DNA of 64,000 nt, from the NCBI GenBank assembly GCA_951406725.2, contig OX597825.1, positions 41,540,001 to 41,604,000 of the forward strand, given 5' to 3'. This document shows positions 573-46,246 of the stretch, one piece after another; position 1 is the first letter of the stretch, and each line of letters begins with the position of its first letter. This DNA comes from Octopus vulgaris. Lineage: Eukaryota. A model generated the notes under the pieces. It ran no database searches and was not told the origin of the DNA. It saw only the letters and a program-made list of their open reading frames with translations. The translations under genes and the position numbers were made by a program.

Positions 573-812
573 TTATAAATTAGAGATAAAACCACTATTA
601 TGTAATTCAAACAGTGATAGACATAAACCAAAACATAAATAATAAATAATATATATTTTTATAAAACATACAACTTATCTCATACAAAAAGTATAAATAT
701 AAATGATCCCTATATAATATAAGTAAAAAAACTATGTAAGTTTCATGGCTACAATTAAATTCGAATTACAATAAAGTTTAAATTCGATTTAGAATTATAG
801 TCAATCTTACAC
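570..812 (-). mobile_element. AT-rich pLTR-like repeat fragment with long hairpin and degenerate hammerhead-like end
   Basis: Lies between (TA)n and (CA)n. The minus strand has a stem gactataatt..tcgaatt/aattcgaa..aattgtagcc followed by GAAAC. The terminus aattagagataaaaccact resembles the reverse complement of 60385-60406. Confidence 0.4.
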
Positions 813-844
813 GCACACACATGTGTGTGTGTATGTATAAACAC

Positions 845-3070
845 ATTATTCCGTTATCCTGGTCCTTCATGAGGTTTAAAGTCTTGAAATTAGCCATCAC
901 CAATTGTTCCATGTCTTCTGGATCTTCTCCATCTGCAAACTCCTTCCACATTAAGTGATCAGCACTTCTTTACTGCTTCATACAGTTATTCTCATCCATA
1001 AAAATTATATATCCTTACCAGTGCACATTTCTCTTATACCCAGTATTTCTCTGAGCATATTGTAGGTTCACTAACATTGCACATACAACAGAGTGAGCTC
1101 ACTTCATTTCTTTCCAATCTTTCCAAGTACTTTACATTCGAAGCTTATGTCTTACTACCATGCAGTATCACAGTTCAGCCACAGGTGTCATACAGTCTAT
1201 CCTTCACTCTAAGAGAAAAGACACTTGTAGCAGCATCAAAAGGTCCTGGAACTTTCTGAAAATCATTCTTAATCTGGCAGCTATACTTTCAGAGCAACCT
1301 TCTCGTTAACTTTAGGGAAACTATTTCTGGTACACTCATAATGCATAAAGTTCAAGTGCATCTATCGCATATGAAGTTTATTTCCAACTGTTGCTCCGAC
1401 ACTATAATGCAATGGGTTGATGACTGAACACTAAATCATTGTTAACTCACACTTTACTTACTGCATTTTATGTGTAACCTGTACTGCCTTCGCAAGCTTT
1501 TCATCTCTGATTTCCTTGCTGACCACAAATTACTGAGTTAGGTACCCTATCAAATGCCTTTTCCAAATCAACAAAAGCCAAGGATAGTGGTTTACTCTTA
1601 GCCAAGTTTCCTCACTTGGAAAACTGCATCTGTGTACCTATCCCCAAGACAGTGAAAAGCTACAACTCATCAAGGTCTGTTGTATCACTGATCAAATGTG
1701 CTATGCTTCAGTCAAAGGTCTATTAGTTTGATTCCCCTATGGTTATGTCTCTCTAATCCATCGCCTTTGCCTCTGTAGATGTTTACAATGATACTGCTAT
1801 GTCAGTCATTTGGATTGATACCTTCCTATATAACTTTATCAAGTTTCCTGGTGATACTCATGTATCTTACCTCACCAAATATTTTCAGCATCTCTAGCAC
1901 TATTCCTCATAGATCCATAGCTTTAACTCATTTTATGTTCTTGGCCCCTTTATCTACCACATTGCTAGCAACTTAAATTGTTGGTCCCTCTGTAGATCAA
2001 CATGAGATAACTCCTCTTTATCTCATGCATTTTCTATATTCAGCAGTGTTACTTCCTAATATCACCTTTCTTCTAGGTTTACAAATATTGTCTCTTAATT
2101 TCTTCCATTTTATCAATCATATTATGCCACTACCATATTACTTTCACAATGACAAGGACTTTGCTCCATCTGCATGTCTGTTCTGTATTCCTATGCAGGT
2201 AATTTCATTGAAATTTGCAGTTGCCATCTATGGCTATAGACTTCTAAATTTTCCTCCCTACACCCATAAGTATCATTTAATGTTTTGCTAAATCTATTTC
2301 AAATTGCAGGATGTTTTAATTCCCATATCTTTTTCACCATGTCTTCTTTTGCTTCTGTTCCTGCCTTGCTCTGTAGTTACTAGCCACTAATCTATGCTGC
2401 ATAGTGCATTGTTTATCAGGAACGATTTTGTTATTTACAATAGCTTTTCCATCCTGTTTACTTTTGAGAATGTTATCTGACTAATGTATTTTACCAGATT
2501 GGTAAGCAATTAAGTATTTTCCCTGGTTTCCTAAAGTGTGTGTTGCAAATAGTTAGATCGCTTGCATCACAGAACTCCAGGGGCTTTACACCTACCTTAT
2601 TTTTTTAATCAAAATCATAGCTTCCACATATGTCATAGAAGCTATCAATGTGTTGGCCAACAAACTCATTGAAGTGGTTGATCATGATGTTGCTGTCAGT
2701 TGTCATTAAGGTTGTCTGCAGAAGAGCTTCACAGAAATAGTCCTGTTCTTCAGGCAATCCTGTTTATATGGTATATGTTGTGATAAAAGTTGCTCTTGAG
2801 TTGTTTATAATTAATCTCAACTGAATCATCCTTTTGTGCAACCTCAGTTATTTCATTTATCCTTTTCTCAGCTGACAGTATGTCTACCTCACCTCTGATA
2901 TCACGGTTACTCACCCAGAGGAATTTGTGCTGCTCTCTCTTACCTGTGAGGAATGTTGTTAAGGATCCCTCTCATCCTATCTCTTACAAACAACACACAT
3001 CCATTCATTTCTGTTCCAACATTTCCACAAGTTCACCAGAACTACCTTTTATCATACCTTTGTTTATGGC
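845..3070 (-). mobile_element. Decayed RTE-clade LINE (APE endonuclease plus RT remnants)
   Basis: The minus strand reads LAKSKPLSLAFVDLEKAFDRVP (RT, ~1543-1605), EFCDASDLTICNTHFRK (APE, ~2528-2577) and KGSSGELVEMLEQ (APE start, ~3010-3050). Many stops and frameshifts. Confidence 0.85.
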
Positions 3071-5679
3071 TGCTACCCAAAAGTTTTGAAATTTACCAAA
3101 AGAGGGTATGTATCTTTGGTGGTAAAACCACTTGGTTGTTGATTCATTACAGTCTGATGGCAACTGTGTCTGTGGAGGATTAGAAAAGATTTTAGGTCTG
3201 CACTTTTCCATTGTAAAATGTTTGGGAATCCAGTTACTTGTCGGTTTTAATAACTGAATACATATATTCTGCAAAATAGGAGAATTTCAGAATCACTGAG
3301 TATATCAAGATGTAAGATATTATATGGCTTAAAGTACACCAAATGGAATGAAACAACATCTATATAAAGTACATTTACATGAAGTACATTTAAACCAGAA
3401 CATGAAAAATATCTACATCTGGAGGGAAAACCAAGTAAGCAGCTAACAATATGGCTGGGAAATGGTTTCTAAATCCAGATTATTGAAGAGAAAGTTGGAT
3501 ATAAGATATATAAAGAAAACAGAATAGTACTTGAAATATGTACTTGAAAATTAACTGATGAGCTAGGTGTTATGTTTACTTAAATAAGTGAGAAGCTCTG
3601 TGAGATAATTAGGGATGCAAGCTGTTTAGGAAATGAGAAAAACTACTGACAGCAATAATAGAAGTGAACTAGTACTCAATCATTAAGGAAAATAAAGCAG
3701 ACTGGATATGCTATTCTTATTGATTTCCTGGCAAGTTATGTGATTTAAATAAAGATAATGTGTTGCTATTTAATTCAACAGTTAAGCAATGCATATAAAT
3801 TATTTGAAAGACATTGAAGTATTTTCAAAAGTACTGAAAACAAGTTTTCTAAGAAGTGGCTATAGTCACTTGATTAGCTAATCAGATATCAGGACTAAAA
3901 GCAAATTTGATTAGAATTTCAATGTGGAAATAAAGTTAATAAACCATAGCAAGAAAAATCATAGCATAGAACAACCAATAAAGAAAGGCTAAATATTTAG
4001 TTTTTCTCTAATAACCACTAGATTATAAAACATGAAACTAAAGATCAGATGACAGGCTAAAAGTGCAGAAGTCTGCCACATTGAAGACAATTTAGCTTTG
4101 TAGCGTAAAAGGCTATAATTGGAGACAGGAATGAACAGCAGTTGATGAAATTAAAACAAAACGAGAAAAGCAAAAGAAAAAAAGATTTCATCCACAACCT
4201 GCACAACTCGTGGGCTGACTATGTGCGGAAATAATTTTAAACCAACAGTGATTCTTCTCAGAACATTATCACAGAAATTCTTTGAAAGATAATAATAATT
4301 GCCTTCAAAAAGTAAATTAATAGAAGGAAGGTGAACTGCTTCAAGCTGCAAGAATTGTTTGAATATGGAGGCTTAAAAGCAGTTATATAAAGATAGTATC
4401 TCCAATATGAATAAGTTATTTGTTCTTTATATCTTAAAGCCTACTATATAGACTTTATTTAAACATAGAAAATAGAAATAAATTAGCTTTGAATAGTTAC
4501 ATCAATAATGGTGAAGAAGATCATTCTTAGGTCAGATTCAATCATCAATATAATTTAAACAGACTGGCTTTATATTATAATAGATAGACTAGATTTTCTT
4601 CTAAAGTAGGTATAAAAAAATTAAAACAAGATGTTATTAAATAAGCTTATATTAAAGGCTCTACATGAATTTAGTAAATGATTGATTTCAATATTTGTAA
4701 ATTTCCTACTCAACAAATAACAATGGTTTATAATTTGGTCATAAAATAATGTATTTTATTTTAATGTTGGAAAATGTTTTGCTATAAACAATAAAACTGC
4801 AGTAAAATAGCAGAATCAGAGGAAACTAATGATGTTATATGGTAGGCAAAAAATAATATAGCTAACATAACAGTGAAAAAATTTATGTGGTGAGGGTGAA
4901 AAGAAGTTTAGTATTTCGTTGGAGAGAGATAAATTATAGAGTTGTCATTAATTTAGGCAAAAAACTGTTAGGGCGGTGTAAAATAGTAGAGGAGTGATGT
5001 GGAGCAGCTAGTATGAGAAGAAAGTAAGAGAGAAAACAAAGGAGATGTAGTGTGATTAGTTTGTGAGTTGCAGGATGAGGGAAGAAATGAAGAGTCTGTG
5101 AGGATACGGTAGAGCTTGTATAGGTCAGGTCAAGTGAGAATACAAGACATGATATGGACAGGATGACAAATACATAGTAACAGAGTCAAACACACACATA
5201 AAAGCAAAAGAGAGGATAGTTACAAGAGATTTGTACAAAATTTAGAGAATATAAATAGTTAGAATTATAAAGACAAAATTGTTTAATGAAAATATTAGCT
5301 GTAAAATGTAATTTGTTGAGTAGAATATATATCTTTCTGTTATTGAGAGCTTCTCAGAGACCATGCATTGAAATTCAACTTCTTCAAGATATCCAGTTTC
5401 TCAGCAATTTTTCAGTATTTGGCAAGATTCACCTTCAATGACACTTTAGTTTAAATATCACAGAACCTGGGATAAATGCCCTCTCCTATAGAACAGGGCA
5501 GACCAATGCATTTGTAAGTGAATTTGGTAGATAGAAATTGTGTGGAAACATGTCATATGTGTATATATGTTTGTGTGTGTGTGTGTGTCACACTCAAGAA
5601 GACCCATACTCCGCAGCACCAGTGTTAAGACTGTTTACCCCCACCCCTTTGGTGAAGATTGACCTGCAAGAGTCTGGGC

Positions 5680-5887
5680 TGGTACCACCTAAAAAGCATT
5701 CATGGCAGTACCACATAAAAGTACCCAGCACACCCTTTAAAGTGGTTGGCATTAGGAAGGGTATCCAGCTTTAGAAACCATGCCAAATCAGAATGAAGTC
5801 TGGTGCAGCTTTCCAGGTTGCCAGCTCTGGTCAAACCATCCAGCTCATGCCAGCATGGAAAATGGACGTTAAAGGATGATGATGATA
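5680..5887 (+). mobile_element. RTE LINE 3' end fragment with (GAT)n tail
   Basis: gtggttggcattaggaagggtatccagc...catgccagcatggaaaatggacgttaaa(GAT)n. Confidence 0.8.
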
Positions 5888-6135
5888 CACACACACACAC
5901 ACATACATAATAACAATAATACTAGGATTGAATTTATAGACATTTAATGCATTGCTATGTGCATTTACATGAATCACATGTCTTTTACGATCACAGTCTG
6001 TATTCCTGGGATGATTACCTTGGAGTCTGTAGTAGATTCATTTCTTCAGGCGATATAACATTAATGGATCTACAACAGGGGGATGCTTATCCCTTTTGAC
6101 CAGTAAGAAGGTTGACTGAGTTATGTCAACAAATT

Positions 6136-6223
6136 GTTATTATTATTATTATTATCATTATTATTGTTATTATTATTATTATCATCATTATTATTGTTAT
6201 TATCATTATTATTATCATTATTA

Positions 6224-6254
<31 letters not shown>

Positions 6255-6285
6255 CATTATTATTGTCATTATTATTATTATTATT
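6136..6285. repeat. (ATT/ATC)n microsatellite
   Basis: Directly visible; source of the poly-N and poly-L ORFs. Confidence 0.95.
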
Positions 6286-6730
6286 GAGTGAGAGAGCAGT
6301 GCATGCCATCAAAGTGACACTGGGGTAAAATATACGAACACCAGTATACCCATCATGACTACCCGTCTGATAAGGGTACACTAGGCACACACATCACCAC
6401 CATATGTGCGTGACATGATGATCTCATATCAAGATAAACAGCACATGACCTTGCAGGTGGGGCCCAGTTAGAATTTTGTTCTGGTCGAGTAGCCCATCTC
6501 ACTCAAAAGGTCCCTGAATAAGGGTTGTTTAAGGATGTTGAACGAAACACCCCTGTTTCCAAAGGTGAATTATTCAAACCCCAAAGAATCCCTCTCAACA
6601 CATGGCTATGATGCTCCCCCCACTACTTCTGCTCGTGATCAGAGATGCACATATCGTCAGCCACTAAGGGACATGCTCAACTGGTTAAGGCCAAACAACT
6701 GACAAGCAAATCTGTGGTATTGAGCAGATA
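6286..6730 (-). mobile_element. Young interspersed repeat embedded in (AAT)n; candidate 3' UTR of an R4/Dong-type non-LTR element
   Basis: Complex, CpG-retaining ~445-bp block flanked on both sides by (ATT)n. Dong/R4 elements are known to target (TAA)n. No coding motif seen. Confidence 0.45.
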
Positions 6731-7129
6731 TTATTATTATTGTTATTATTATTATATTTATCCTACATTACATCAATACAGCTCGATGCAATCCAAAAAA
6801 AAAAAACTGGCTCACCAGTCAGCATCATTAGACTGTGGCCAGCATAATGGAATATAAGATTTATTTGCATACTAAAAACATCTCGCATAAAAAATTTAAA
6901 AGATGTGTTTGTGAGTGTGTATTTACGAATATCTATAATATAAAAGACAGAAGATGTGTATGTATATATGTGACCAGCCATTACATTGATCCTATGTAAA
7001 AATCAATATTTTTCTTCCGAATTTGTTCGCACTTGGCAAATACATCGCTTATGTTCCATTGATGGCTCTACACTATTTAGAATTTTTTTACTTATGGAGT
7101 AATGGGGGTTCTAGGGTCAGAAGGTCCGT

Positions 7130-7720
7130 ATTTTGCGAAGAAACAGTCAGAAATTGATTGTCTCCCTTACACAGCAATCATCAAAAGGTCATAACCAGGT
7201 ATTTTTTGTTGAGAATTGGTGGGTCATACCCCACAACAAGATGCTCTGCAAAACATTTCATTCACACATCAACGTAGACTTCAACGACGAAAATAAGGCC
7301 CACCTATGCAGTTGGATTCAGCAGTGTGCAAAGGCGACACAATCGGATGCATTTACACAGTTCACCTCCTGAACTCCGAATGCTTCCATCTGTGGCTCTT
7401 CCTGTCATTAAGGGACCGACCTCCTTCGATGACCTTTGCACTGTGGACGGCCACTTATGTGGCACTTTCAAAGATGCCTGTTCCAAACAGATTCAGATGG
7501 TCAATAAGATAATGTACTTGAAGAGGCCTCTCTGTGTCATTCTCCACACAAGCGCCAACACCTTTTCACAATTATGCTGGTTTTTCTGCAACCTGACAGA
7601 TGCACATTCACTTTGGAATAAATACAAAGACTCAACGTGCCATGACACTTTGCAGCAGATTCACCAAATCACAGGTAGCGTTGATACTCCCACTACCTAT
7701 GAGAAGATGTATACAGATGC
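7130..7720 (+). mobile_element. Helitron RepHel pseudogene fragment
   Basis: NWWVIPHNKMLCKTFHSHINVD, DTIGCIYTVHLLNSECFHLWL and KGPTSFDDLCTVDGHLCGTFKDAC resemble the Helitron motifs N.WVVPYNP.L...F.AHINVE, GR.YTVHP...ECFYLRLLL and GPTSF.DLRTV.G....TF.EAC. Frameshifted and internally deleted. Confidence 0.85.
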
Positions 7721-7944
7721 ATATATTAGACATGTATATATATATTTATATAGATATTTATATATATCAATATCTACATATACAACTCGTACTCATATGT
7801 ATATGTACACATACACATCCATATATACGTGTATCTGTATGTATAATCGCCCCTGTACACGCAGGTGTATATACCTTGTATACATACATTCACACACACA
7901 TACATATACACACACATATGCCTGCACTTATATACACACGAATA

Positions 7945-8900
7945 TAATTAGATGGTTGTGATATTCGGGTATGAGTGAGATTAGGTGTTAAAATGTAGAT
8001 TTATAGAGTTATTGGGATTATCTAAGGGGTATTGTGAAATTATATTGTATGGTCGTTTAGGCATTTGGATTTGTGGTAGAATTTGAATTTGTGAAAAAAA
8101 TGGTGGTTGCATGTGCTTAGTGCCTCGTTATATTTATTTAGCAATGCTGGAGAGTTGTGCTTTAATATGTGAAGTGCCTCCTTCAGGCAAAACTTGCAGG
8201 AAGAGCGTTGACCTCAGTAGGGAAGCCCTTTTAGGTTGATCCTATGTATATGGCTGTAGAGTTGTGTAATAGATTGAGGATAGTGCATTTGTAAATTACA
8301 TTATATCTTCTGCACTGGGTTTGTAACAGTTCCAAGATGGCAATTGCAATTCAGGGAATTATGGGGAAATTCTTCAGGAATAGAGGAGGTAATATCGTCA
8401 GAGGAGAGGTTAGAGAAGGGGTTGAAGATTCTAGATTATTAGTATTATTAACGTTACTATTACCATCATTGTTATTATTACTATTGTTGTTATTAATTGT
8501 ACTATTAGTAAGGGCGGTAGAGATTGCGGTGGTGTTCTGCACAGCGTCAGTAAGATGGGTTGTGTTGTGGTTGTTTTCTAATGTAAGGGTATCTGTGCTA
8601 GAACTGTGTGTGTGTTGAGTGTTCATATGACTAGAGTTGTAATTATGTGAGTTTTGATACTGAAGAGAAAGGTTTTGCTTATTAGAGGCTGCTACAATAG
8701 ATTCGAAGTTGGGTGGGGTAGAATAAGATAGTTTCAGGGCGGATCTATTAAAGATAGAATGATATTTATGTTGCCAAGGGAAGTTGGAGTCTAGTATTTT
8801 AAAGAAGGAGTTAACTCAGTTCTTAACGTTAAGTTAGAATTGGAGTGTGTCAAAACCCTCGATTCAATAGCACTGTGTACAAACTCTATACTCGTATGTT
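7945..8900 (-). mobile_element. Penelope-like element C-terminal remnant (RT-EN linker plus GIY-YIG endonuclease)
   Basis: Manual minus-strand translation gives SFFKILDSNFPWQHKYHSIFNRSALKLSYSTPPNF (~8810-8705), an Asn/Thr-rich spacer, then CRRYNVIYKCTILNLLHNSTAIYIGST*KGF (~8313-8222). Confidence 0.8.
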
Positions 8901-9017
8901 GTTGGTAAAACATGTTCTATATCTATCTCCTTACTCTCTTGGCGATTTTGGATATATATAGAACAGATGCAACAATCAGACAAATTACAGAAGCTACACA
9001 CATAATAGAAAATAAAC

Positions 9018-9076
9018 CTAGCCTGAAGAGAAAACTAGAATGGAACACTAGCACACACCAAAACATATGACGGTAG
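9018..9076 (+). ncRNA. Degenerate type-I hammerhead-like motif
   Basis: ctagc-CTGAAGA-...ctag..ctag..-cAAAA-CATATG-ac-ggtag. Stem I and the palindromic stem III are present; GAAA and UH are mutated. Confidence 0.45.
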
Positions 9077-9460
9077 AGGATCCCGAAAACATAATAAATA
9101 CACAGATAAATAAACAAATAGAAATAAATAACTATTTTTTTCTTTTTTTATCGATTTATTATTATTATTACTAGTATTGTTGTTATACATCCATACATAC
9201 ATACAAGCATATGTAATGATAATAATAAGTGGATGTAAACACATGAACAAAATAAGAATAAACAAAAACAACAACAACAAAAGCAAATTACATGAACGTA
9301 TATAAACAGAAGATACAAATATTACAGGCATCCCCCACACACTAAATAAACATAGATGCACATAAAGATATAAGCATGTGCAAATGAAGACATACAACAG
9401 AAATACAAAATGGCTGACGGTTAGTAAGGAGAGACACAAATAAGAAAGAAGAAAACAAAG

Positions 9461-9505
9461 GACCACTGATGCGGTCACAGGAGTGTGACGAAAGAACTCT
9501 GGCCA
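9461..9505 (+). ncRNA. Minimal type-I hammerhead-like motif (variant core)
   Basis: cca-CTGATGCG-GTCACA ggag TGTGAC-GAAA-gaac-TC-tgg. Confidence 0.6.
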
Positions 9506-9618: not shown

Positions 9619-9668
<50 letters not shown>

Positions 9669-12143: not shown

Positions 12144-12929
12144 TGGTATGAAATGTAACTTTCATCATTTATATCAATCATTTAAAAGTATTTTGGATTT
12201 TCAGTGAAGATAGTGATTGGGATGAAGTGGTGAAGACTGATCACACCTGATAAGTGTCATAAGGGAGATGACAAGTGACCATGGCAATAGGTAACATGTT
12301 ATACTGGTGAAAACTTTCTTCTGAAGACAAGCATGGCAAAAAAGAATGTCTTACTTGTCTGAAAGTGTTGGTTGCTAGGATGCCATACTTGTTTGAGAGT
12401 GTTGGTCACTAGGACATTTTGCTTCAGTTTACCCACTAACATCTCCCTGCCTCTTTTCCAGTACTTTTGTCCTATGCTCTCACACCACTCTGTAATATCC
12501 TTCTCCTTACCTCCTCTTCTTATCTCACTGCTCTTGTTGATTCCATCTTCTATTCTCTCTCATCTCTAGGGCACCCTACAGTCTTTCCATTTATCACAGC
12601 CTTTTCCTACATTCATCCACTGGTCACTCCTATCTTTTTCTCTTACTATATTCTCCCACAGCTTCTCCCACCTGTGATACTTTCTTTGTTTTCCCACTCT
12701 GCTCTTACCCTCTACCTCTAAGGTATCCCCTAGTTTCTTTTTCCCACCCTTCTCTTGCTGCACTAACTCACTGCTCACCTACCTTCTGCTTCATTTTATC
12801 TCACTATCCTGTCCCTACAACTCCTCTACCACCTCAATACCCTCTCATCTCTCCATTTCAGGGATACTGTCATGACACTCACACTTCTCTTTTCTTCAAT
12901 GACTCTCTCCAAAATAGATATATAAGTGC

Positions 12930-13338
12930 AAACAATTTCTATGTACTATGCTGGATACATGTGGTGTTCATCTGGTATGTTGATTTTTGTTTATTTTTAT
13001 ATGTCTTGACTACGCTGTCACTGATGAGTAAAAAGTGCATTTTGTGCACTAATTACGAAATCATATGATATGCACCTGAGTCTGTTTCTAGGAGGCTCGC
13101 TTTGAGAGTTGCATTTCCTTGCGTTTGGTACAATGTGGTTATTATGATGGTTTTAACTTTAAGAGTCCCTCCTAGCATGAGGCATTTGTGTATAGTAATG
13201 CCCTTAATATAAATAGATATATTTATAGGGAATAATTAACAAATTTTTCCCTTATGAGCTTTTTCATGCTGATTACTTGATAAATTCTTATAAAGATTTT
13301 ATCCAATATTTAAATTGTACATATGTAAACGATGGTGA

Positions 13339-13622: not shown

Positions 13623-13670
13623 GTCTTACAGCTGTTTCCAGGATATTTATTATATCCCTTCATAGGAGAC
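13623..13670 (-). ncRNA. Hammerhead-like motif, left palindrome arm
   Basis: gtct-CCTATGAA-gggata..tatcct-g-GAAA-CAGCTG-TA-agac. Confidence 0.6.
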
Positions 13671-14058: not shown

Positions 14059-14103
14059 GTCTCCGATGAAGGGATATAAATATCCTGGAAACAGCTTTAA
14101 GAC
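14059..14103 (+). ncRNA. Hammerhead-like motif, right palindrome arm
   Basis: gtct-CCGATGAA-gggata taaa tatcct-g-GAAA-CAGCTT-TA-agac. Confidence 0.65.
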
Positions 14104-14200: not shown

Positions 14201-15057
14201 CGAAGAGGTACCCACCAAAAAACAGAAGTTTTCAAACTTATTTTATTCACTTAGTTTTACACTTTTATCGTCTACAAAGTATTCTCCATTTGAAGCAATG
14301 CATCAGTCCAGACATGTTTTCCACTGTTCGAAGCAGTCCTGGGACTCTTGTGAAGTGATGTTTTTAACACCTTCATCGTTTTTTTTCCTTCACCTCTTCC
14401 ACATCTGGAAATTCCATAGCACCAGCTACCAGCTTTCATCACCAATGATGACTTTCGAAAAAATGGTTTGGATCAACTTCCAACTCTTGTTTCAGTTCAT
14501 GATATGCATTCAGTCATGACTGCTTTTGATCTTCCATGAGCAAGTGAGGCACAAATTTTCATTTGCAATTTCTCACTCATATCAACAAATTTGTCAATTG
14601 TACAGTGATGGTCCTCCAAAATCAGTTTATTAATTTTCATGAAGTTTTCATTTGTTCAGGAGGTTGACTGTTTCCCTGAATGAGGTTGGGTCTGAAGTGA
14701 CACGTGATAATTCCTAAAGCATGAAAACCATTTGTAAACTTGTGTTTTACTCATGTCAACATTGTTGCAAACTGTTTGAAGCATGACAACTGCTTTGGCC
14801 ACCGTTTTCCCCAGCAGAAAACGGAATTTCATGGAAGCACATTGTTCCTTTGCTTGAGCCATCACAAAAATCACTGAACAGGAGAGAATCACTGCAAAAC
14901 AAAGACACAACTCGTGAAAGTACAACTTCACACAATGACACCAGTCAGCAGACTGATATCTGAGGGTCGCATCAAGTGGCTTCTAGTGGTGGAAGCCTGA
15001 ACTACAATGGGATTGTTCCACAGAGAACATTTCCAGTTATTTTTGGGTGCCTCCTCT
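14201..15057 (-). mobile_element. Internally deleted mariner transposon
   Basis: Imperfect TIRs cgaagaggtaccc../..gggtgcctcctct flanked by TA. N-terminal HTH EQCASMKFRFLLGKTVAKAVVMLQT..MSKTQVYKWFSCF..QPHSGKQSTS, plus C-terminal DVEEVKKKT. Confidence 0.9.
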
Positions 15058-16957: not shown

Positions 16958-18805
16958 TGTACATTATTTACATTCGATGGATATTTGTCCTCATCTTGTT
17001 TGTTGTTAACATAACATTTCAGTTGATATACCCTCCAACCTTCATCAGGTCTTGGGAAATTTCGAACCTGGGTTCTCATTCCTAAGGTATTTTTCAACGT
17101 TGCTATTGTTGTTGTTGTTATTATTATTCAGGTCACTGCCTGAAATTGAACTCAGAATCTTGGGGTTAGTAGCCCGTGCTCTTAACCCATGCCATATACC
17201 CATGGGCAATTATCGAGTGAATTCTAGGGATTATAAATCTAATATTCACCTGTCCTTCCTTAATGCCGGTTCCCATATGCTGTTCATATCGGCACTCAGT
17301 CTGCTTAGGAGGTTGTTGTGTCCTAGCATATGTGCTGCTTCTTTTAGTTATGTATTTTCCTGTGGTGTTCTCTGTCTATTATTGTAACTTCATCCCACAG
17401 GGAGAGGTGGTCTCCATTTTTCCATACATGATCAGCTATACCCGATTTATCAATGTCTCCCCATATCACAACTTTGTGATGTTCATCTACCATTATTTTG
17501 AGGGGGCAGCATGTTTCGCTTTTGTATAACCTACCACAGTTTCATGGGATGGAGTACACACAGTTCTTAGTCATATTCTCTTCTATTGGTGGTTTTACTC
17601 AAACAAAATATTTGCAAAGCATTGTATTACTTTTGAATACTGTCTTGATGTCATGGGCTGCATATCTTTTGTATCTTTTCAGAGAGGCCTTTCACATAGG
17701 GTAGACAGATTGTGGACAGTACATCAGTTTCATCCTCCCTTTTCTTCATAATTCAAGTGAATAGTATGGTTTTGGGGTAGTTGTTGCTTAATAGATTGTT
17801 ACTGAGCTTGACCATTTCTTTGTGGTGAGTATCACGATCGCTACTTATATTCATTCTTGATGTTTTAGGCACTGAGCAATCCCACTCTTTACACTGTATG
17901 GATCGTGGGAGTTGAAGTTGAGGTATCGTCCAGTGAAGGTCGGCTTACGAACATACAGATGTCTTGAATCCATACTTGGTGCATGTTATTAATATGTCCA
18001 GGAATGTTAGCTGATTGTCTTTTCTTTTCTCCATTGTGAATTTTTGGGGATAGCTTTATTGAGTTCACATGATCTAACAGCACTTGGACATCTTCCTGGT
18101 GGGGCCAGAGTATAAAGGTGTCATCAACATATCGCAGCCATAATGTTGATTTTAGTGGTGTTGATCCTAAAGCCAAATTCTCAAAGTATTCCCTGGATAT
18201 ATTGGCTATTATTGGTGATAATGGCAAACCCTCATCTTGTCGATATATATCAGTGTCCATACGGAAGTATGTAGTTTCTACACTGAAGGTCAACATTTCC
18301 ATCAAGTTTCTTATTGGTATACTAGTGTGTTCTTTTAGATGGGTGTCTGTCACTAGTTTTTCTTGTATCACTGATAGTGCTTCACCAGTTGGGACTTTGG
18401 TGAACAGACTTATCACATCTAAGCTCACCATCTGGTTGGATTCAATGGGGGTATCCTTGATCAATTCTGTGAAGTGGGTAAAATTCTTCACGTATGATGT
18501 TGACTTTCCTGCTAATGGACTGATTATATCCACAAGGAAGTGGCTGAGTGGATGACATGCTGAACCTCTACAGCTCACTATAGGTCTTAATGGAATACCA
18601 TCTTTGTGAATCTTAGGAAGACTGTACATGTGTACTAGTTTACTGTAGTGTTGAGTCAGTTGTCTGTAATTCATTGATGTAAAGTGATCCTTGTTCTTGA
18701 TCAAGATCTGTGACATCTGCTTCTCTGTTTTCAAAGTAGGGTCTTTCTTTACTCTCCTGTATCTGCCATCACTTATAAGACTTGCCAGTTTTTCAGCATA
18801 GTCTC
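16958..18805 (-). mobile_element. 5'-truncated Penelope/Poseidon-type element: RT, GIY-YIG and pLTR
   Basis: ORF 17889-18914 contains YSLPKIHKDGIPLRPIVS, MVSLDVISLFTKVP, LSPIIANI and WLRYVDDTFILW. Downstream frameshifted NCVYSIP..CGRLYK and IADH.W GIY-YIG remnant; pLTR at ~16958-17250. Confidence 0.95.
17008..17052 (-). ncRNA. pLTR hammerhead-like motif, left arm
   Basis: ac-CTGATGAA-GGTTG gagggtatat CAACT-GAAA-tg-TT-atgt. Confidence 0.6.
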
Positions 18806-19335
18806 CACTCCAATTATAAAGTAAAAAGAAAGGATGAAACTGATAAACTGTCCACAGCCTGTTTACCCTATGTGAAAGGCCTCTCCGAAAAGATACAAAA
18901 GATATGCAGCCCATATGACATCAGGACAGTATTCAAAAGTAATACAACACTTCGCAAATATTTTGTTTGAGTAAAACCACCAATAGAAGAGAATATGACC
19001 AAGAACTGCATGTACTCCATCCCATGCAGCTGTGTTAGGTTATACAAAGTTGGAACATCGCAAAGCTGTGATATGGAGAGATACTGATGAATTGTGTATA
19101 GCTGATCATGTTTGGAAAAATGGAGACCACCTCTCCCTGTGGGATGAAGTTACAATAATAGACAGAGAACACCACAGGAAAATACGTAAACTAAAAGAAG
19201 CAGCACATATGCTAGGACACAACAACCTCCTAAGCAGATCAAGTGTGGATATGAACAGCATATGGGAACCAATATTAAGGAAGGATAGGAGAATATTAGA
19301 TATATAATCCCTAGAATTCACTCGATAATTGCCCA

Positions 19336-19408: not shown

Positions 19409-19494
19409 GAATAATAATAATAATGATATTAATAATAATAATAACAACAACAATAGCGACATTAGAGAACCCAGGTTCGAAATTTCCTAAGACA

Positions 19495-19542
19495 CCTGAA
19501 CCTGATGAAGGTTGGAGGGTATATCAACTGAAATGTTGTGTT
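19495..19542 (+). ncRNA. pLTR hammerhead-like motif, right arm
   Basis: ac-CTGATGAA-GGTTG gagggtatat CAACT-GAAA-tg-TT-gtgt. Upstream gacac complements gtgt but is displaced by a short duplication. Confidence 0.65.
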
Positions 19543-21245: not shown

Positions 21246-21673
21246 ACAATGCTTCAACCACTACAGGCTATACAACCAAAAAGAGAGGGAAAAATAGAGG
21301 TCCATCATAGAGAACAATGCTAATGGGATCTACCCACTATACAGGAGTAAATCCTGGAACAGCGTAGAAAGAACAAAGAAGGTAGGTCAGGCCAACTCAT
21401 GGCAAAACAACAAAATATACCAGAGTGACATGTTTGTTGGAGCTACTCCTGAAGACAAACTGGCATATCTTTTTAGAAAAAACTCAAGTAAGATGCATTT
21501 ATGGATTAAAATAGTTGATTAGGAATTAAAGTAGAAGACTAGGATTTTCCATAAAATATGTTTTGTAGAACATGCCCATTTGAAGAACTCCCTTTATGGA
21601 CAGGAGATGTATAGTGTGTAGAGTGATGCCATAGATAAGCTATAAAAGTAGGAATATAATCTATAGTCTAAGG

Positions 21674-21863
21674 CAGTGGTTCCCAACTTATTCACAATAG
21701 TTCCCAACAGTGGTTCCCAAACCTTTTTATTTAAATGAGTTTTCCCATGGACCCTTTTTAATATGCTTACTCTTATGTGTGTGTGTGTGTATATATATAT
21801 ATATACCCAGTACTACCTTTGCAGACCACCAGGGGCCCACAATCCCCAGGTTGGGAACAACTG
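21674..21863. mobile_element. hAT (Charlie-like) MITE with 8-bp TSD
   Basis: TIRs CAGTGGTTCCCAAC / GTTGGGAACAACTG; flanks gtctaagg / atctaagg; the left TIR is tandemly reiterated at ~21708. Confidence 0.88.
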
Positions 21864-22139
21864 ATCTAAGGTGTAAAGAACATTGCAGAGAAAGGATGTT
21901 GACATACATTGCAGAGACAGTATGTAGCATAGATGAGCAGATAAGTGAACACTGGTGGGAACTCAAGGAGGAGAACAGCTTATAGGTGCTCTTCCACCAT
22001 GGAGGCTAGTTGACAACATGTACATTTGGATCTTATCAATATGTAGAACAGACATGACACTCAGACAGATTATGGAGGTCACACATATAATAGAAGATGG
22101 ACTAAGCCTCAACAGAAAATGTGAATGAAGCAATAACAC

Positions 22140-22460
22140 TCATCATCCCCACACCACTACACAACCTGATGATTAAAGACATGGGTACAAATATTGTAAT
22201 ATACAAACCCATAAATACGCAGACAGGATACACATGAATACAGATATAAGCACAAATGCAGACAGAGATACATACCACAGAAGGACAAAATGGAATGGGC
22301 AGGGCAAGAGAAGACATAAGAGACAGAGAGTCATTTTAGAATTTACAGAATGTGTGATGAAAGAACTTTGATGGACAAATAAACTAAAAAATAAATAAAC
22401 ACATAGTGCATGTGTTTAATTGGCAAAAAGATGACCATCTCCAATTTTAACAATATATAT
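22140..22460 (+). mobile_element. Older copy of the pLTR family at 9320-9625
   Basis: Shared collinear motifs catcccc.cac, acagaa..acaaaatgg, gtgtga.gaaagaact and tagtgcat.tgttt.attggc..atgaccat..taacaatatatat. Confidence 0.6.
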
Positions 22461-23439: not shown

Positions 23440-24650
23440 TATGTGCATATATACATACATATATACATACATATATGTACATACCTACATATATATGGGT
23501 ACTACTTAAGAAGAGTGGTCTCAGTGTGTGCACTCGAGCAAGCTAGTCGTGACTAGTCGATCTTTACTTTGTGTTTTTTTGTTTTATTTACTTTGTTTTA
23601 AAAATTATTTACTTTGTGTAAAAAATTATTTATTTTGTGTTTTATTTACTTTGTTAGGTAGTCGTTGTAGGATCGACTAGTCACGACTAGTTCACGTGGA
23701 TGCACGCACAAGGACCACACTTCTTAAGTAGTACCATATATATGTATATACACATGCATATATGGGTACAGGATATAAAAAAACGTTGAACACAATGAGA
23801 AACGAACTTGTTTTCAAACAACAACAAAAAAAACAGAGAAACGAGACATAAGGAATATTCCCCTTCTTCAGTTGTCCCTGATTCATCTACTCCACATTTC
23901 AAAGGTAAAGACAAGATGTGACTTCGTTGAAACAGTCCTTCCCGCAAAGAAAATTAAATAAAATTTGGCATTTTTTGCGGAGGGTGAAAGTGGTACCAAA
24001 AACAGGACATTGAGAACAAAACAGTAAAAAAAAGAAAAAAGTAAAAACAGTATAAGACAGGACAATGAGAACAAGACTGTAAAAACAAACGATGCAGGTT
24101 TTTAAGCCAAGACGATGGAAAAATTATTCTGAACGCTTAGGGAGACAGCTTATGAAGAGACAGGATAAGCTGGTCTGGGCTTTGTGAAGATAGTAGTTGG
24201 AAAGATGGCTCTCCTCTGATCATGTATCAGCGACGAGAAAGTCGAGGAGAAGGAGGAGGAGGAGTAAAAGAGTGGGAAGGGTGGGAGAGAAAACCAGAAA
24301 GGATGAAGAACAAGAGAGGGAGAGAAAACCAGAAAGGATGAAGAACAAGAGAAGGAGAGAGATAGACAGAAAGTGATAGTAAAGAAGGAGAGTGCGCATC
24401 GTAATTATTACGATAAAACCTACTTGGAAAAGGATGCATGGCATTCGATATAAATATATGCATATATACATATATATATATGTACATACCTACATATATA
24501 TGTATATATACATGCATATATGGGTATAGGACATCAAAAAAATTTGAACACAATGAGAAACGAAAACATAAAACAAAAACATAGAAACGAGACATACAGC
24601 ATAAGGAATATTCCCTTCTTCAGTTATCCCTGTTTCATCTACTCCGCATT
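23440..24650. mobile_element. Non-coding element with partial direct terminal repeats (pLTR-like tandem)
   Basis: 23440-23897 (excluding the nested MITE) is repeated at 24450-24650 (tgaacacaatgagaaacgaa..taaggaatattccc.ttcttcagtt.tccctg.ttcatctactcc). TA-repeat flanks. Confidence 0.65.
23498..23735. mobile_element. Mutator-like (MULE) MITE with ~65-bp TIRs and 9-bp TSD
   Basis: GGTACTACTTAAGAAG..CTAGTCGTGACTAGTCGATC / GATCGACTAGTCACGACTAG..CTTCTTAAGTAGTACC. ATATATATG on both sides; single-copy empty site at 24494-24502. Confidence 0.85.
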
Positions 24651-27649
24651 ATATATATATATATATCGGTATTGCTCACTTAAAATTTTTAATTGGTGGT
24701 AATCATGTATAGCACTATTTCATTTTTTTTAGAAATCATCGTCAAGATATAACTTGACATTAATTAGACATTTTATGAAGTGAGGCTTTCATTAAAAATG
24801 AAGTTAATTATAATCTGGAGGAAATTTATGTGTTTTTCTTTTTCATAGAACGTTAGTAGTTTAGAACTCAAGAGAAAATATAGAACATCGTTAGTATTTA
24901 CATACAGAATAATAACAGTTTCCAAGGGAATACTACCTTGTCAAAACGTCTTGCCAATAATTTCAACTTCAGTGGCAAACAATTCTCCAAGATGTTTTCC
25001 ATTATGTTATTTGAGGTGTAAATAATTGTTTCAAGCTGCTATTTCTTATTGGTAATCCTTTATGTACGTAGTCAAACGAACATCTATTCAAAAACAGACA
25101 AAAATTGACCATTGTTAAATTCTCGTGAAGGCAACTGCAATTTTTCAAATACATGTGGTTCCCTCTAGTGATAGCAGTAAATATAATAATGATAATGAAA
25201 TTATTGTATACACGGAAGATAATCATTCACTACCACCATGCCGTGGGATGGAATTAAAAATTTGTATTTGAAATTAAGGAATTATGAGGAAAAAGATGCA
25301 AAGAATTCACATATTTAACTTATGCTTTATTATGAAGTTTAAGCACACACACACACACACATTTCAATTTAATTTGGGTATTAACCTTCTAGTTTGCTTT
25401 AGAAAGCCTGTTTATTGGTATATATATTCATTTATATAGGTACATAGATCGGTAGATAGATAGATAGATATATATGCTGCAAAAGTATGCTCTTACACAC
25501 ATGTACATATTTTTAAAAATGTACCGCATGTAAATACATAATACATGTGACCATATTTTCTGTACTTTCCATCTTCATTCACTTCTGTACATAAATTTCT
25601 TACCTAACATAAGTCGGCCTGTTCTTATGATTGAATAAAACCTTTGGTTGCCACATTTTCGGCATCTAGATACATACAGCACACTTTATTCAATCTTAAA
25701 AACAATCATGGGTTTGAAAATTTTCTGGAAAACACTTGTTGATGAGCTACCTGACATTTACATTTATTGGCGCAAAATGTGACATGTGTACACTGAGCAA
25801 ATAAAAATACCTGCTGAATTGCATTTAGCTGTTATTTTAGTTCTCTGCAGTGATAAAGCTTATCAAGTTTTCGAAGAGTATCCCTCACTTCACGAAGACC
25901 TCTATTTCCTCGATAAAATGTATATTGTTAACTCGTAGTTATCTTGATAGACAGCACTAGTCCAAGTGGTTATGCAGCCTTTAACACTGCCATATTGTTT
26001 CTCAGAAAAATTTCACGAGAACTGCCAATATGGTAGAACAAATATATGGCAGTCTTCTCTGCCAGCAAAAAGATCTGCTCATTCATGCAATAGTCTTGTA
26101 AATATTTGTGTTTGCATATTTGTCTGCCTGTACAGGAAGTATGGAGTTGCCATTAGTATCACTGGTTTCAGCTAAGGCTGGCTGATGGGGTCATCTTGTT
26201 TTGCTTGCAGTTCATGATCTGCCTCCATTATGGTCCAGCACTTTCTGTGATGCACATCATTGGCTGACTTTTAGTAAGTCCAATTCATCATAGCTGGAAG
26301 CAGGATACAGAAAATGATGACTAGGAGGCAATGACCCTAAGAGTCCTGGATCCTGACTCTTTATAAATAGCACCAGATGTTGGATGTTGAGTTGAGACTG
26401 TGTCTGTGTGACTATCTCTGAACTCCACTCTGGCAAATTGAGCTGAGATAGTTTCTTTGAGAGTTATCTTCTAAACCCAACCTTTTTCTTTCCTCAGAAT
26501 GTGATAACAATGTAGAACTGTACTCGTACTCTCCTTTTGTTGCAGAAATTCCAGAAGAGTTTGATCAAGAGTTTGATTGTCCTGCAAAGCTCAGTAATCT
26601 TACATGAGGAGTCTGGTTTGTTGCCATACAAAGCAAACACCAAAGAGAAGAAAGCACAATATGTAAAACAGCTTCCCAATGTTTTGAGTCCAACCAAAAT
26701 TTTGAAGGGCTAATTTGAAAGTTTGTGGCCAAATCTTGTTAGTTCATTCACACTAGCCATTGTTTGGGGATAAGTATAGTATTGTATATGTCCTACTTAT
26801 GCCATTTCTTCTCAGAATCTCTTCTACCTTTTTACTCTCAAACTCTGTCCCATGATCTGAATGTAGACAAAAGGGTGACTCAAACATGGTAAAAAACAAT
26901 AGCAGATGATCTATCACTGTGTCTGATGACATATCCTAGCAGATGAAGATGAAAGAATATCTTAAGTATTCATCTACTGGGAGAATTGTATACATAAGAT
27001 GACCTTGTGGTGGTTTATGAAAGTTAGGCTTAAATTCCTAGCAAATGGCACAGTTGTCAGGAGTGGATCGCTGACAAAGTGAATGTGACTTGGTGAGATC
27101 TCCAACAAGGCGAGATTGTGTCTTCGACAGTCATGGTATGGCTATGTAGAGCCAGGATGGCACAATTGGTTGTCTTTGTTTCTGAGGTAACTCAGGCCTT
27201 ACGCAACATTACATCACGTTTGTGCATCTGAACTGTAGACAGGTGAATTTGCAAAGTTTTCCAGAGGCTTCAAATGCAGTTGGAGAATAATCAGATGGTT
27301 GAAGTGAGATTTGATAGCTGATGTATTTTATGTCAATTATCGAAAATATGCAATGTCTTGTTACCTTACGGTGGATGTCTTTGTTTGGGTTGTACAGTCA
27401 GGCATCTAATTTTATATATTTTTTCCGAGTATTCAATAGTTGAGCATGGCTTTTTATTGAAGTTAGCTACGAAACATTGAGTATACCACGGACTTCAATT
27501 GTACTGAATCATTCCTTCATTTTGTAGACGCTTTATTTTCGTCTTAATAAAATGTTCATGTTGTCTATTATTTCTTGTGGAAATTGGTTTAATTTCCTCA
27601 ACGTCTACTCCTGACATGAGACACAGTGCTCCCTTGTTAAGTGTTTTAA

Positions 27650-34689: not shown

Positions 34690-34856
34690 CTCCAGGTTTT
34701 TTTGTTATTTCTCTGTTTATTTTCTCTTATTTCTTTCTGTTGAAGAGCGTAGGCTTGAAACATAAAAGAGTTCTCTTTCCTGAGAGTCAAACTAATACAT
34801 CTGTTTATTGTTCATACACCTGTCTTCATCTTTTGTTTTACTGTAAATTTCAGCTC
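34690..34856 (+). mobile_element. Solo pLTR of the PLE family at 44791-46246
   Basis: Collinear with the reverse complement of 44791-44950 (ctttctgt.gaag.g.gtaggct.gaaac.taaaaga..ttcctgag..actaata..cacctg.cttc.tcttttgttt). Confidence 0.8.
34732..34769 (+). ncRNA. Hammerhead-like motif with non-canonical core
   Basis: tcttt-CTGTTGAA-GAGC gtag GCTT-GAAA-ca-TA-aaaga. Confidence 0.6.
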
Positions 34857-35375: not shown

Positions 35376-35428
<53 letters not shown>

Positions 35429-38530: not shown

Positions 38531-38569
38531 GTATTCACATCTTAATAGCCACTTCTGTCTCATCTGAGT

Positions 38570-41370: not shown

Positions 41371-41381
41371 CCCATTTTATG

Positions 41382-41421
<40 letters not shown>

Positions 41422-41424
<3 letters not shown>

Positions 41425-41945
41425 TCATCATCATTTAACGTCCGTTTTCCATGCTAGCATGGGTTGGACGGTTCAACTGGGGTCTGGGAAGCCAGGAGGC
41501 TGCACCAGGCTCCAGTCTGATATGGCAGTGTTTCTACAGCTGGATGCCCTTACTAAAGCCAACCACTCCATGAGTGTAGTGGGTGCTTTTTATGTGCCAC
41601 TGGCACAGGTGCTAGGGGAGGCTGGCAACGGCCATAATCGGCGCTGGCATTGGCCACATTTGGAAGGTGCTTTTTATGTGCCACCGGCACAGGTATCACA
41701 ATTACAATTTCCATTTGAATTTTTGATGTTGATGTACTTCACTCAATAGGTCTCCTCAGGCACAGCAAGTCACCCTACGATCTAAGGTAAGCACAGCAGG
41801 CCGTTCTGCAATCCAAGGTACTTTGTATGGGCTGGGGCTTCTATGTGAAGCTGGTGTAGGAAACAACCATGAACTCATGTTATTTGTCAGGTCTTCGCAG
41901 TCACAGCATATCTCCAGAGGTCTCGGTCTTTCGTCGTTGCCTCTG
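41422..41945 (-). mobile_element. RTE LINE 3' end (UTR plus tail)
   Basis: (CAT)n-ttaacgtccgttttccatgctagcatgggttgg..gggtgctttttatgtgccac..cacagcatatctccagaggtctcggtc. Confidence 0.85.
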
Positions 41946-42987: not shown

Positions 42988-43075
42988 ATAGATAGATAGA
43001 TAGATAGATAGGTAGGCAGATAGGTAGGTTGGTAGGTAGGTTGGTAGGTAGGTAGGTAGGTAGGTAGGTAGGTTG
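42988..43075. repeat. (TAGA)n(TAGG)n microsatellite
   Basis: Directly visible. Confidence 0.9.
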
Positions 43076-43636
43076 GAGAGAGAGAGAATGAGAGAATGCA
43101 ACTGTTTATTCTCATTAAATATATTGACTGCTACAATTGAAGTGTGTATTGTATACGAGTCAAGCAACACATTCAATCTTGAAAATATCTTTAAACAACA
43201 CAGTGGGATTCTGAATATATAATTAAGAAGTATTCTTTACTGAAAATTCTTCACTCAGAAATTAATATAAATCTTTGTCATTCAGTCAAACCTCAAATTT
43301 GAAAAGAAAAATTCTAAGATCATCCAACATGTATATGAATAACACTGTTATGGCTGCATCAATGTAATCTTTAATTATTTGGTTCTTCTTCCTGGGAAGT
43401 TCAACCTTAACATTGTTTATGATGTTCCCCTACTACCACCATCACCACCATCATTACCATCACCACTGCCACCACCACTACCTCCACCACCACCACCAAC
43501 AGAGACTAGAAAAGTCAGCATTTAAGAATGGGTGTGAAATGATATTTCACATACAGGTAACATTGCCAATAGATAAACATTTAGACTAGTTTCTCAAATG
43601 TTTGGGGTTCAAATACTATGCAGGTATTTATCGTTT

Positions 43637-43910
43637 ATCTTTTACTTGTTCTAGTCATCTGAGTATGGCCATGCTGAGATACCACCTTTAAAGGTTTTAG
43701 TTGAACAAATCATCTCACCCTAGGACTTATTTCTTAAGCCTAGTACTAATTCTACCAGTCTCTTTTGCTGAACTGCTAAATTACTGGGATATAAACAAAC
43801 CAACACTGGTTGTCAAGTGGTGGGTCAGAACAAACACAGACTCAAAGACACTCACACATAGATAAACATTCATACATATATGTATACATACATACATACA
43901 TACATATATA
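43637..43910 (-). mobile_element. Tail half of bipartite SINE (head at 46247-46394)
   Basis: Reverse complement of 28325-28492-type sequence. Confidence 0.75.
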
Positions 43911-43911
43911 A

Positions 43912-44512
43912 ACCTGGGATGCCCAGGAAAACCTGGGATGAGGTGGTGAAGCACAACCTTCAAATGTTAGGCCTCACCCAGGCAATGACTAGTGACCGAG
44001 ACCTTTGGAAATATGCTGTGCATGAAAAGACCTAGCAGGACAAGTGATACCATAACCTGTGGCCTTTACCAGGGATGTAGCCAGCCCACTTATGCATACC
44101 TTTCCTTCTTTGGACACAAAACTCTGCTTGCGAAGACCTGTTGAGGCAAATGAAATCGAAGTTGAATTCAAAATTGAACCAAATTCGATGACTGGCACCC
44201 ATGCCAGTGGAGTGCAAACAGCTCCATCCGAGCGGGATCACTGCCAGAGCAGCTGTCTGGCTTCCGTGCCGGTGGCACATAAAAAGCTCCATTTGAGTGT
44301 GATCGTTACCAGTGTCGCCTTACTGGCACTTGTGCCGGTGGTACGTGAACAAAACATTCAAGCGAGGTCATTGCCAGTGCCGCTGGACTGACTCCTGTGC
44401 AGGTGGCACATAAAAAACACGACTTTGAGCGTGGCCGTTGCCAGTACCGCTCGACTGGCCCTTGTGCAGGTGGCATGTAAAAGAATCCACTTCATCCTCG
44501 GAGTGGTTGGTG
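43912..44512 (+). mobile_element. RTE LINE 3' segment with ~66-bp internal tandem units
   Basis: PRKTWDEVVKHNLQMLGLTQAMTSDRDLWKYAV, then about five gactggc..gtgc.ggtggcac.taaaaa..gccagt units. Confidence 0.88.
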
Positions 44513-44732
44513 TATGTATATAGATATAGATAGATAGATAGATAAAACTTACTTGGAAAAGGATGCATGGCATTCAATCATATAATAATATAAATAATAT
44601 ATATATGCATATATACATATGTATATGTGCATACTTACATGTATACAAATATACATATGCATATGTATATACATATATATGTAAGTATGTATGTATGCGT
44701 ATGTATGTATATATATATGCATATATACATAT

Positions 44733-44772
<40 letters not shown>

Positions 44773-44790
44773 TTATATATATATGATGGG

Positions 44791-46246
44791 TAGGTTTACA
44801 AAAATAAACAAAAGACGAAGGCAGGTGGAGTACAAACAAACAAATATATTAGTATAGCGCTCAGGAATAGAAATAGAAAAAGTCTTTTACGTTTCGAGCC
44901 TACACACTTCGACAGAAAGATACACAGAAAAAAACAAGGAGAGCAAAAAATGCATGTAGGAGATAACGATCTATGATGGCGTCCAGACTTCGGACAGTGG
45001 TCAGACGCGAGAGGGACAGTAGGGGAGATAACAGGGTCAAGTGACTTCCAAAACGAAGGTGCCCCAATACAAAGGTTCGTGTGTGTATAAGAGAGTATGT
45101 ATGTGCATGTGAAAGAGGGCTGTGGGGGAGAGGTTTGGGATAGGGGTGAGGTGTGTAGGGGAGGGTGTGGGGTAGAGTGGGGGAAGTGGTGGGAAAGATA
45201 AGGAAGGGGGTGGGAAGGATAGAGAAGGTGGAGTTGGGGCGGGTGGGTTTATAGGGGGAAGGTGGGTGTATGAGGAGAGAAGAGAGGGGATGGGGGAGAG
45301 TGAGAGGAGAAGAGAAGAGAGGGGAGGGGAGGAGGAGGAGGGGAGAGAGGAGAGGAGAGGAGATGAGGGGGGAGGAGGTGGGAGAGGCGAACGAGAAGCA
45401 GTTAAGAGAAAGGACAAGTTCGGCCAGACAAATGAGCGTGGAGGTGCCGGGTTCAGGGTTGGAGCAGAGGTCGAGAAAGTGTTGAAGTGCACGTAGTCTT
45501 CGGGGTGAGGGATGACGGTATAGAGGCTCTGGAAGTCCATTGTAAAGAGGAGTTTGGAGGAGCCGGGAGGAAAGGAGAAAGAGTTGAAAAGCCGGAGAGC
45601 ATGGTTGGTGTTGTGGATGTGAGAGGGAAAAGACACCACTAGGGGGGCAAGGACACGGTCGAGGTACTTTGAGATGAACTCTGTAGGGCAGTTACAGGCG
45701 GAGACGATGGGGTGGCCAGGGTTGTTGGGTTCGTGGATTTTGGGGAGGAAGTAAATGGTGGGGGTGCGGCTGATCGGACAATGAGGTTGGATGCGGTGTG
45801 GGGGAGACGGGAGGATGAGATGAGATCATGGATGGTAGAGGAGACCGTCTGTTGGGCGTGGGGTCAGATGACAGAGGGCAGTAGAAGGAGGTGTCATTGA
45901 GTTGGCGGAGCGCCTCGGCCCTGTAGAGGTCCGCGCGCCACACTACCACAGCTCCACCCTTGTCGGCCGGTTTAATGACAATGTCAGCATGCCGTCGGAG
46001 GGAACAAAGAGCCGAGAGCTTGGCCAGGGAGATGTTGAGGCGGCGGTGGCGCCTGGAGAAGTTGAACGGCTCCAACGCGTGCTGACAGGCACCCGCGAAA
46101 AGATCCACTGCTTGGAACTGACCGGGGGCAGGCGTCCACTGGGATGGTCGGCGGCCCAGATCAGTGAAGCAGTCCTCCTCGTTGGATGCGGGTGGTATGT
46201 CATGGAAAAACGCACCCAACCGGACGCTACTGAGAGAAACAAGGAG
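44791..46246 (-). mobile_element. GC-rich Penelope-like element, internally deleted (N-terminal RT, C-rich UTR and pLTR)
   Basis: DIVIKPADKGGAVVVW..YRAEALRQLNDTSFY, NNPGHPIVSACNCPTEFISKYLD, LLFTMDFQSLYTVIPH. YxDD and GIY-YIG are absent. pLTR at 44791-44980. Confidence 0.93.
44883..44920 (-). ncRNA. Hammerhead-like motif with non-canonical core in pLTR
   Basis: tcttt-CTGTCGAA-GTGT gtag GCTC-GAAA-cg-TA-aaaga. Confidence 0.6.

Follow-up and report, generated by a model that had tools for sequence, protein, structure and literature searches.

A 64,000-nucleotide stretch of the Octopus vulgaris genome (assembly GCA_951406725.2, contig OX597825.1, positions 41,540,001 to 41,604,000; hereafter the window) carries motifs resembling the minimal hammerhead ribozymes of Penelope-like elements (PLEs), which raises the question of whether these motifs are real, which units they belong to, and whether the parent elements could still cleave RNA with them. 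A sequence-only reading had listed about eleven such arrangements, placed them on PLE pseudo-long terminal repeats (pLTRs) and proposed that many mark non-coding units mobilised in trans. Our analysis makes it probable that the real sites are the decayed ends of seven high-copy families with the minimal type-I layout, three of which end protein-coding PLEs, and that the parent motifs would cut slowly, as a dimer or helped by a protein. Judged from their aligned copies, three of the seven families depart from the core consensus as a whole, by A6U, U4C or A9C, which had been overlooked.

The window copies were judged by searching their own genome (2.8 Gb in 227 contigs, the window lying on contig C12) with most of the sites and aligning the genomic copies, not by motif counting alone. 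The window is AT-rich and laden with microsatellites, which dominated the repeat search. Ten of the eleven listed sites proved to be relics of type-I minimal hammerheads, the layout being visible in the family alignments, while the site at 9018 is false. In all seven family majorities (families are named here by the positions of their window copies) the core is enclosed by helices I and II arranged as in type I, although for 745 and 9461 helix I is just 3 bp long. The canonical core, C3 U4 G5 A6 N7 G8 A9 / G12 A13 A14 A15.1 / U16.1 H17, was found in families 365, 745, 13017 and 17008/19495 (the last aligned from nine copies in loci fetched for other queries), but not in families 34732/44883 (A6U), 13623/14059 (U4C) and 9461 (A9C). 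The CUGANGA core ascribed to the sites is absent from many of them: three families differ in their majority core, and the 745 copy has lost its CUG by truncation. The palindromic stem III noted earlier is borne out in six of the seven families, the palindrome of the 9461 family being interrupted. A G10.1-C11.1 pair occurs in four families (13017, 17008, 34732 and 9461), with A-U, U.U or A.R in the remaining three. At least six families had been proposed, and the listed sites indeed fall into six, or seven counting a further site at 365-409. With that addition the eleven real sites amount to nine insertions from seven high-copy repeat families, because a single inverted insertion accounts, as its two arms, for both 13623 and 14059, and another for both 17008 and 19495. 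All window copies except 9461 are damaged in the core or helices relative to their own family.

Three of these families could be connected to protein-coding sequence. In the 17008/19495 family a reverse transcriptase (RT) remnant (PF00078) lies between the two motifs. The 9461 motif lies 3' of an endonuclease (EN) C-terminus, the open reading frame (ORF) of which was matched in 24 of 24 loci that the neighbouring 9018 query had brought up, a figure that partly follows from the query itself. With the RT fragment next to 44883 there were 2,875 candidates, of which 150 were scored as matches; many of the latter lie in open frames of more than 1,000 amino acids, and in loci fetched around long-ORF RT matches, chosen for their long frames, the motif was present in 20 of 20 and on both sides of the ORF in 11. 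These RT and endonuclease links therefore identify the motifs of the three families as ends of autonomous-type PLEs. Their location corresponds to both pLTRs in the A6U family, and to the region 3' of RT or EN in the 17008/19495 and 9461 families.

The A6U family has U in place of A at core position 6. A genome-wide search anchored on the flanks, with all 28 motif bases left free, returned 19,602 exact matches against 2 for a control. A count by eye of the first 100 matches listed gave 96 with U at position 6 and none with A, and N7 was mixed (A33/C21/G11/U34), while H17 was A74/U22/G2/C1 and thus A or U in 96 of 99. With positions 4-7 free there were 16,491 matches, compared with 197 for the canonical A6 form. 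A sizeable A6 subfamily was considered and rejected on that number and on its mixed N7. When 79 copies were placed on a flank-built tree, the motif changes on its internal branches numbered six at N7, two at H17 and one at a distal base of stem I, and none of the other 35 of the 38 motif positions changed, as against 58 of 115 flank columns; in this comparison 21 of the 38 positions lie within the search anchor and a T-rich flank alignment inflates the flank rate. Since those 21 positions are anchored, the flank-anchored count of 100 copies is the fairer view of them. The few positions that change across A6U subfamilies in this tree are ones at which a hammerhead allows change. No subfamily-level change was seen at G8 or G12, and loop II is invariant. 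All 32 motifs in the long-ORF RT loci carry U6, and in runs under four organism labels N7 varied in all, whereas every alternative to U at position 6 stayed below 5%, although this table omitted H17 variation and so misses variants. Coding constraint on U6 with a free N7 was rejected as an explanation: N7 falls on a wobble position in one frame, but so does U4, which is nevertheless U in 97 of 100 copies, and the motif lies outside the ORF.

The A6U motif sits in the pLTRs of young, intact elements of Neptune/Nematis type. The locus L291 encodes a 1082-aa ORF (PF00078, E 1.4e-7) between repeats that are 99.7% alike; a DKG motif, a Zn-finger linker and, at the C-terminus, a GIY-YIG domain can be read in its translation, PF01541 reaching just E 0.006, below the cut-off. 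The youngest A6U subfamily is 96-99% alike. At L300-L301 (G000:C6:117.39-117.41 Mb) three near-full-length A6U units stand head-to-tail with four motifs at about 4.47-kb spacing. A sister pLTR lineage (14 copies compared; L050, L179, L184, L292 and others), recognised by eye from the stem II and downstream block it has in common with the A6U family, carries A6, has C4 in most copies and a loop II of 3 nt, and shows a compensated pair in stem I, G-C for C-G. Because this lineage has A6, U6 is likely derived in the A6U family. One diverged sister-lineage copy, L148, has a canonical core.

The other two altered cores were also seen at family level. For the 13623/14059 family there were 1,052 matches; counted by eye, about 85 of the first 100 have C4, while U4 and A5 are about equally infrequent, the pattern that CpG decay produces. 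U4C occurs in three descriptor clusters. In the 9461 family 40 of 43 descriptor matches have C9, and two more diverged relatives have A9.

Beyond the window, the idea of PLE-type minimal hammerheads forming a large, family-diverse genomic population is supported: 875 kb of fetched loci held 194 descriptor matches in 19 clusters, 8 of which were single matches. The loci L005, L035, L069, L226, L243, L244, L263 and L310 represent further families with a canonical or near-canonical core, a long stem II and a 6-nt palindromic stem III of differing sequence. A hand union of descriptor and family searches gave at least 29 sites, 7 of them in one tandem array, in 600 kb taken elsewhere as 60 stretches of 10 kb at round coordinates. 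This is about one site per 21 kb, which extrapolates to the order of 100,000 per genome. The population of the window had been called dense, and its 11 sites in 64 kb are about three times the sample density, but the window's own families served as queries, which favours the window. The population itself is ordinary PLE biology: family-diverse PLE hammerheads and the link to retrozymes have already been published for other animals (PMC4209133, PMC7229834, bioRxiv 10.64898/2026.07.22.740005). More than 6,000 motifs in 16 families are given for a coral, and up to 120,000 for axolotl (PMC7229834).

Could such sites be chance matches within AT-rich repeats? The first strict descriptor matched only 365-409 in the window. 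Against shuffled sequence the strict form gave 2 window matches versus a mean of 0.017 in 60 shuffles, whereas a looser one, allowing one mismatch per core half, gave 6 versus 4.9; motif counts alone therefore do not prove the sites, and the family evidence does. When a perfect palindromic stem III was demanded, no window copy passed, and the 600-kb sample yielded 12 canonical and 17 one-mismatch matches versus 0-1 in 8 shuffles, one of the 17 (L152) looking like chance. An Rfam scan of the window had no hammerhead family among the matches listed (150 of 151, E up to 5), mostly microsatellite-driven microRNA matches. Chance does account for 9018, where the CUGANGA is due to a rare base absent in all 24 other aligned copies and the sequence is the last codons of a GIY-YIG ORF. 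For the other ten sites it is already refuted by the closing of all helices in the family majorities and by reversed-pattern controls that returned 0-2 matches versus thousands, so that as a general explanation it has a negligible probability. A more serious alternative, that of the sequence-only reading, holds that self-cleaved circular RNAs are the source from which most units, as non-coding passengers resembling retrozymes, are copied in trans. The 13017 family fits it: direct repeats of 487-493 bp were found at five independent places among 24 loci, and the longest stop-free frame has 64 codons. We regard its identification as a retrozyme-like unit as supported by these repeats, and the unit is likely a non-autonomous passenger. 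The 365 family, with a period of about 400 bp in 2 of 18 loci, may weakly be called retrozyme-like. A separate 359-bp tandem array (L151:3082-4512(+), with two opposite-strand copies; G000:C1:20.00 Mb), its units 99% alike and each with a canonical hammerhead with a 6-bp stem I, looks likely to be a classic retrozyme. On the other side, six of the ten real listed sites (34732/44883, 17008/19495 and 9461/22350) belong to families that end coding PLEs, solo copies show ragged 5' ends and variable inversion centres, and the listed sites contain no tandem hammerhead array. Fold-back units had also been proposed as mobilised in trans. Inverted partner copies do occur in 4/19, 9/24, 6/18, 9/29 and 7/19 loci, but their centres vary among copies, as in ordinary PLE 5' inversions, and this part of the proposal is not supported as a general reading. 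Mobilisation of most units as non-coding passengers is on balance unlikely.

For the parent elements we favour a motif that would cut the element's RNA slowly, as a dimer or aided by the element's own protein. The window copies would have been dead on arrival, being products of target-primed reverse transcription that began at the 3' end; variable 5' truncation and inversion, and damage in the window copies, are observed, and the family alignments agree with the published minimal hammerhead plan (PMC4209133). In minimal PLE hammerheads cleavage is weak and confined to multimers (PMC4209133), and one from an Anolis PLE requires the protein of its element in order to cleave (PMC11167929). The master lineages may accordingly be under selection for a hammerhead fold that tolerates A6U, as the element would need just weak, assisted cleavage; if a slow, assisted hammerhead suffices, the selective bar would be low enough for single substitutions in the turn to become fixed, with G8, G12 and the helices retained. 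On present sequence evidence, keeping of the A6U fold for such cleavage and keeping it for binding alone appear about evenly balanced. That a recently active PLE lineage with a CUGU turn and a sister with CCGA both still cleave, as dimers or with an RT-endonuclease propping up a near-dead core, would imply a protein-dependent ribozyme in at least 20,000 copies; we give this rather less than an even chance.

Several observations weigh against continued cleavage, or against extending the coding-element reading to every family, as do the limits of the flank tree and of the four-label table given above. No ORF was found for the 365, 745, 13017 and 13623/14059 families with a small protein library and 1.5-kb flanks. 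Stem II of the A6U family shows no covariation, and folding in a 175-nt context gave a stem I probability of at most 0.27 in all 16 copies; a conserved downstream helix blocking the core found no consistent support in the same 16 folds. None of the 5' ends fell at the predicted cut (+28), eight long copies starting at +40, +74, +167, +329, -487, -608, -709 and -880 in a sample ascertained on the motif from output swamped by microsatellite matches. Pairwise mutagenesis gave low activity for CUGA-turn mutants except a C3-G8 swap (PMC9901934), natural A6C cleaves at less than 0.1/min (PMC3088659), and cleavage is dispensable for insertion in vitro (PMC11167929). Much of this would suit our main rival, in which the fold of the variant families no longer cuts and is kept as a pLTR cis signal for protein binding, RNA folding or promoter activity: three of seven families carry a change, each at a position where mutants are slow, the invariant loop II of the A6U family fits a binding site, and Naiads spread without a described hammerhead. 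Yet the freely changing core positions of that family are N7 and H17, the latter with its strong preference for A or U, G8 and G12 show no subfamily-level change, and U4C is a viable natural viroid variant (PMC3088659), so that loss of cutting is a real possibility to which we give roughly one chance in three. It is also conceivable that the core changes are neutral damage hitchhiking in a few masters, conservation then reflecting only recent common origin. The A9C family, very young and with A9 in its more diverged relatives, would agree with this, as would the similarity within the youngest A6U subfamily, but A6U subfamilies differ in half of the flank columns and not in the motif, and U4C recurs in three clusters; as an account of the altered cores it is improbable.

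Compared with published PLE minimal hammerheads (PMC4209133), the octopus motifs share the core layout, the extra base after A9, the short helix I and a palindromic 15.2-16.2, and in both a genome has many families, in which most motifs stand singly and derive from truncated PLEs while some form opposite-strand pairs. In contrast, the core variant described there is U3-A8, with no U6, C4 or C9 among the Fig. S3 rows covered, and the A6U family alone exceeds the 4,000-9,000 motifs per genome given there. Natural core variants (Perreault et al. 2011, PMC3088659) include the slow A6C, the viroid U4C, viable in vivo, and U10.1-U11.1, but as isolated, rare instances, none of them fixed across a family of 20,000 copies; 'A6U' and 'A9C' had no match in the main text of that paper, a term search of PMC11014351 gave no match for the variants, and PMC6765202 contributed nothing further. 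We found no report of an A6U hammerhead in the literature within a search reach that did not extend to Lünse et al. 2017 (PMC5785218), which may describe such variants, to supplements of the bioRxiv papers or to file 1 of PMC4209133. The A6U element resembles Neptune/Nematis-type EN+ PLEs (Craig et al. 2021, 10.1101/2021.04.23.441226) in its RT with DKG, CX4CxxC linker, C-terminal GIY-YIG and pLTR hammerhead, in partial tandems (compare the both-side motifs of A6U loci) and in inverted 5'-truncated copies; it differs in its variant core, and the Neptune/Nematis label was set by these features. Animal non-LTR retrozymes (Cervera and de la Pena 2020, PMC7229834; Li et al. 2026, 10.64898/2026.07.22.740005) are matched by the 13017 unit and the L151 array, both non-coding tandems with canonical cores, whereas three window families are coding. 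The Anolis Poseidon element PAc (Frangieh et al. 2024, PMC11167929) likewise has a pLTR hammerhead in an intact PLE and offers a model for protein-assisted cleavage, although its ORF begins inside the motif, while in L291 the first Met follows about 750 nt downstream of it. The variant families are of interest for the role of the PLE hammerhead: an intact young element bearing a core change that slows isolated hammerheads lends itself to asking whether cleavage is required, aided by protein or lost. Moreover, CUGANGA descriptors undercount hammerheads, missing the very abundant A6U family altogether.

Along the window, the overlooked relic at 365-409(+) has a canonical core, and its family's stem III, an 8-nt palindrome, is broken in this copy (1113 candidates in the genome). 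The relic at 745-808(-) is 5'-truncated, without CUG and with a broken stem III; its family (979 candidates) has a canonical core, a long stem II starting with U.U and a 6-nt palindrome. The false 9018 'core' lies in the C-terminal codons of a PLE GIY-YIG ORF detected by tblastn (8939-9067(+)), followed by the motif at 9460-9504(+), which matches the majority of its young family (98-100% alike; 330 candidates) with an A9C core and interrupted stem III palindrome. The canonical-core hammerhead at 13016-13074(+), its stem I damaged, belongs to a partial copy (12914-13322) of the non-coding tandem unit of about 490 bp (892 candidates). The U4C-family motif at 13623-13670(-), with an additional G5 change, is the inverted arm of a fold-back insertion whose other arm, at 14059-14103(+), has a broken stem III (2731 candidates). 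A canonical-core minimal hammerhead with damaged stems I and III at 17008-17053(-) forms one end of an inverted, truncated coding PLE, with its RT remnant at 17892-18920(-) (PF00078, E 3e-7) and the second hammerhead at 19491-19542(+), where a 6-nt duplication separates stem I from the core. An old PLE 3' end akin to the 9461 family occupies 21301-22370(+), comprising a decayed endonuclease (21301-22146) and the 3' half of a hammerhead at about 22352-22370; it was assigned by eye from these two features, and direct blast of the remnant gave no match. The A6U family is represented by a solo pLTR fragment at 34732-34769(+), damaged at 11.1 and in stem III, and by the motif at 44883-44920(-), with two private stem II changes, which marks the 3' end of a Neptune/Nematis-type PLE that has suffered deletion and whose RT remnant (45383-46225(-)) is homologous to the intact L291 ORF (E 7e-65).

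Other features of the window include two copies of a repeat, 23786-23898(-) and 24541-24660(-), with GAAA ahead of CUGANGA; in seven aligned copies the bases ahead of the core appear to covary with the strand after stem II. An open frame at 7278-7961(+) has no Pfam match and reads like what we take to be a Helitron helicase fragment. A fragment of a Mariner transposase helix-turn-helix domain (PF17906) lies at 14659-14982(-).

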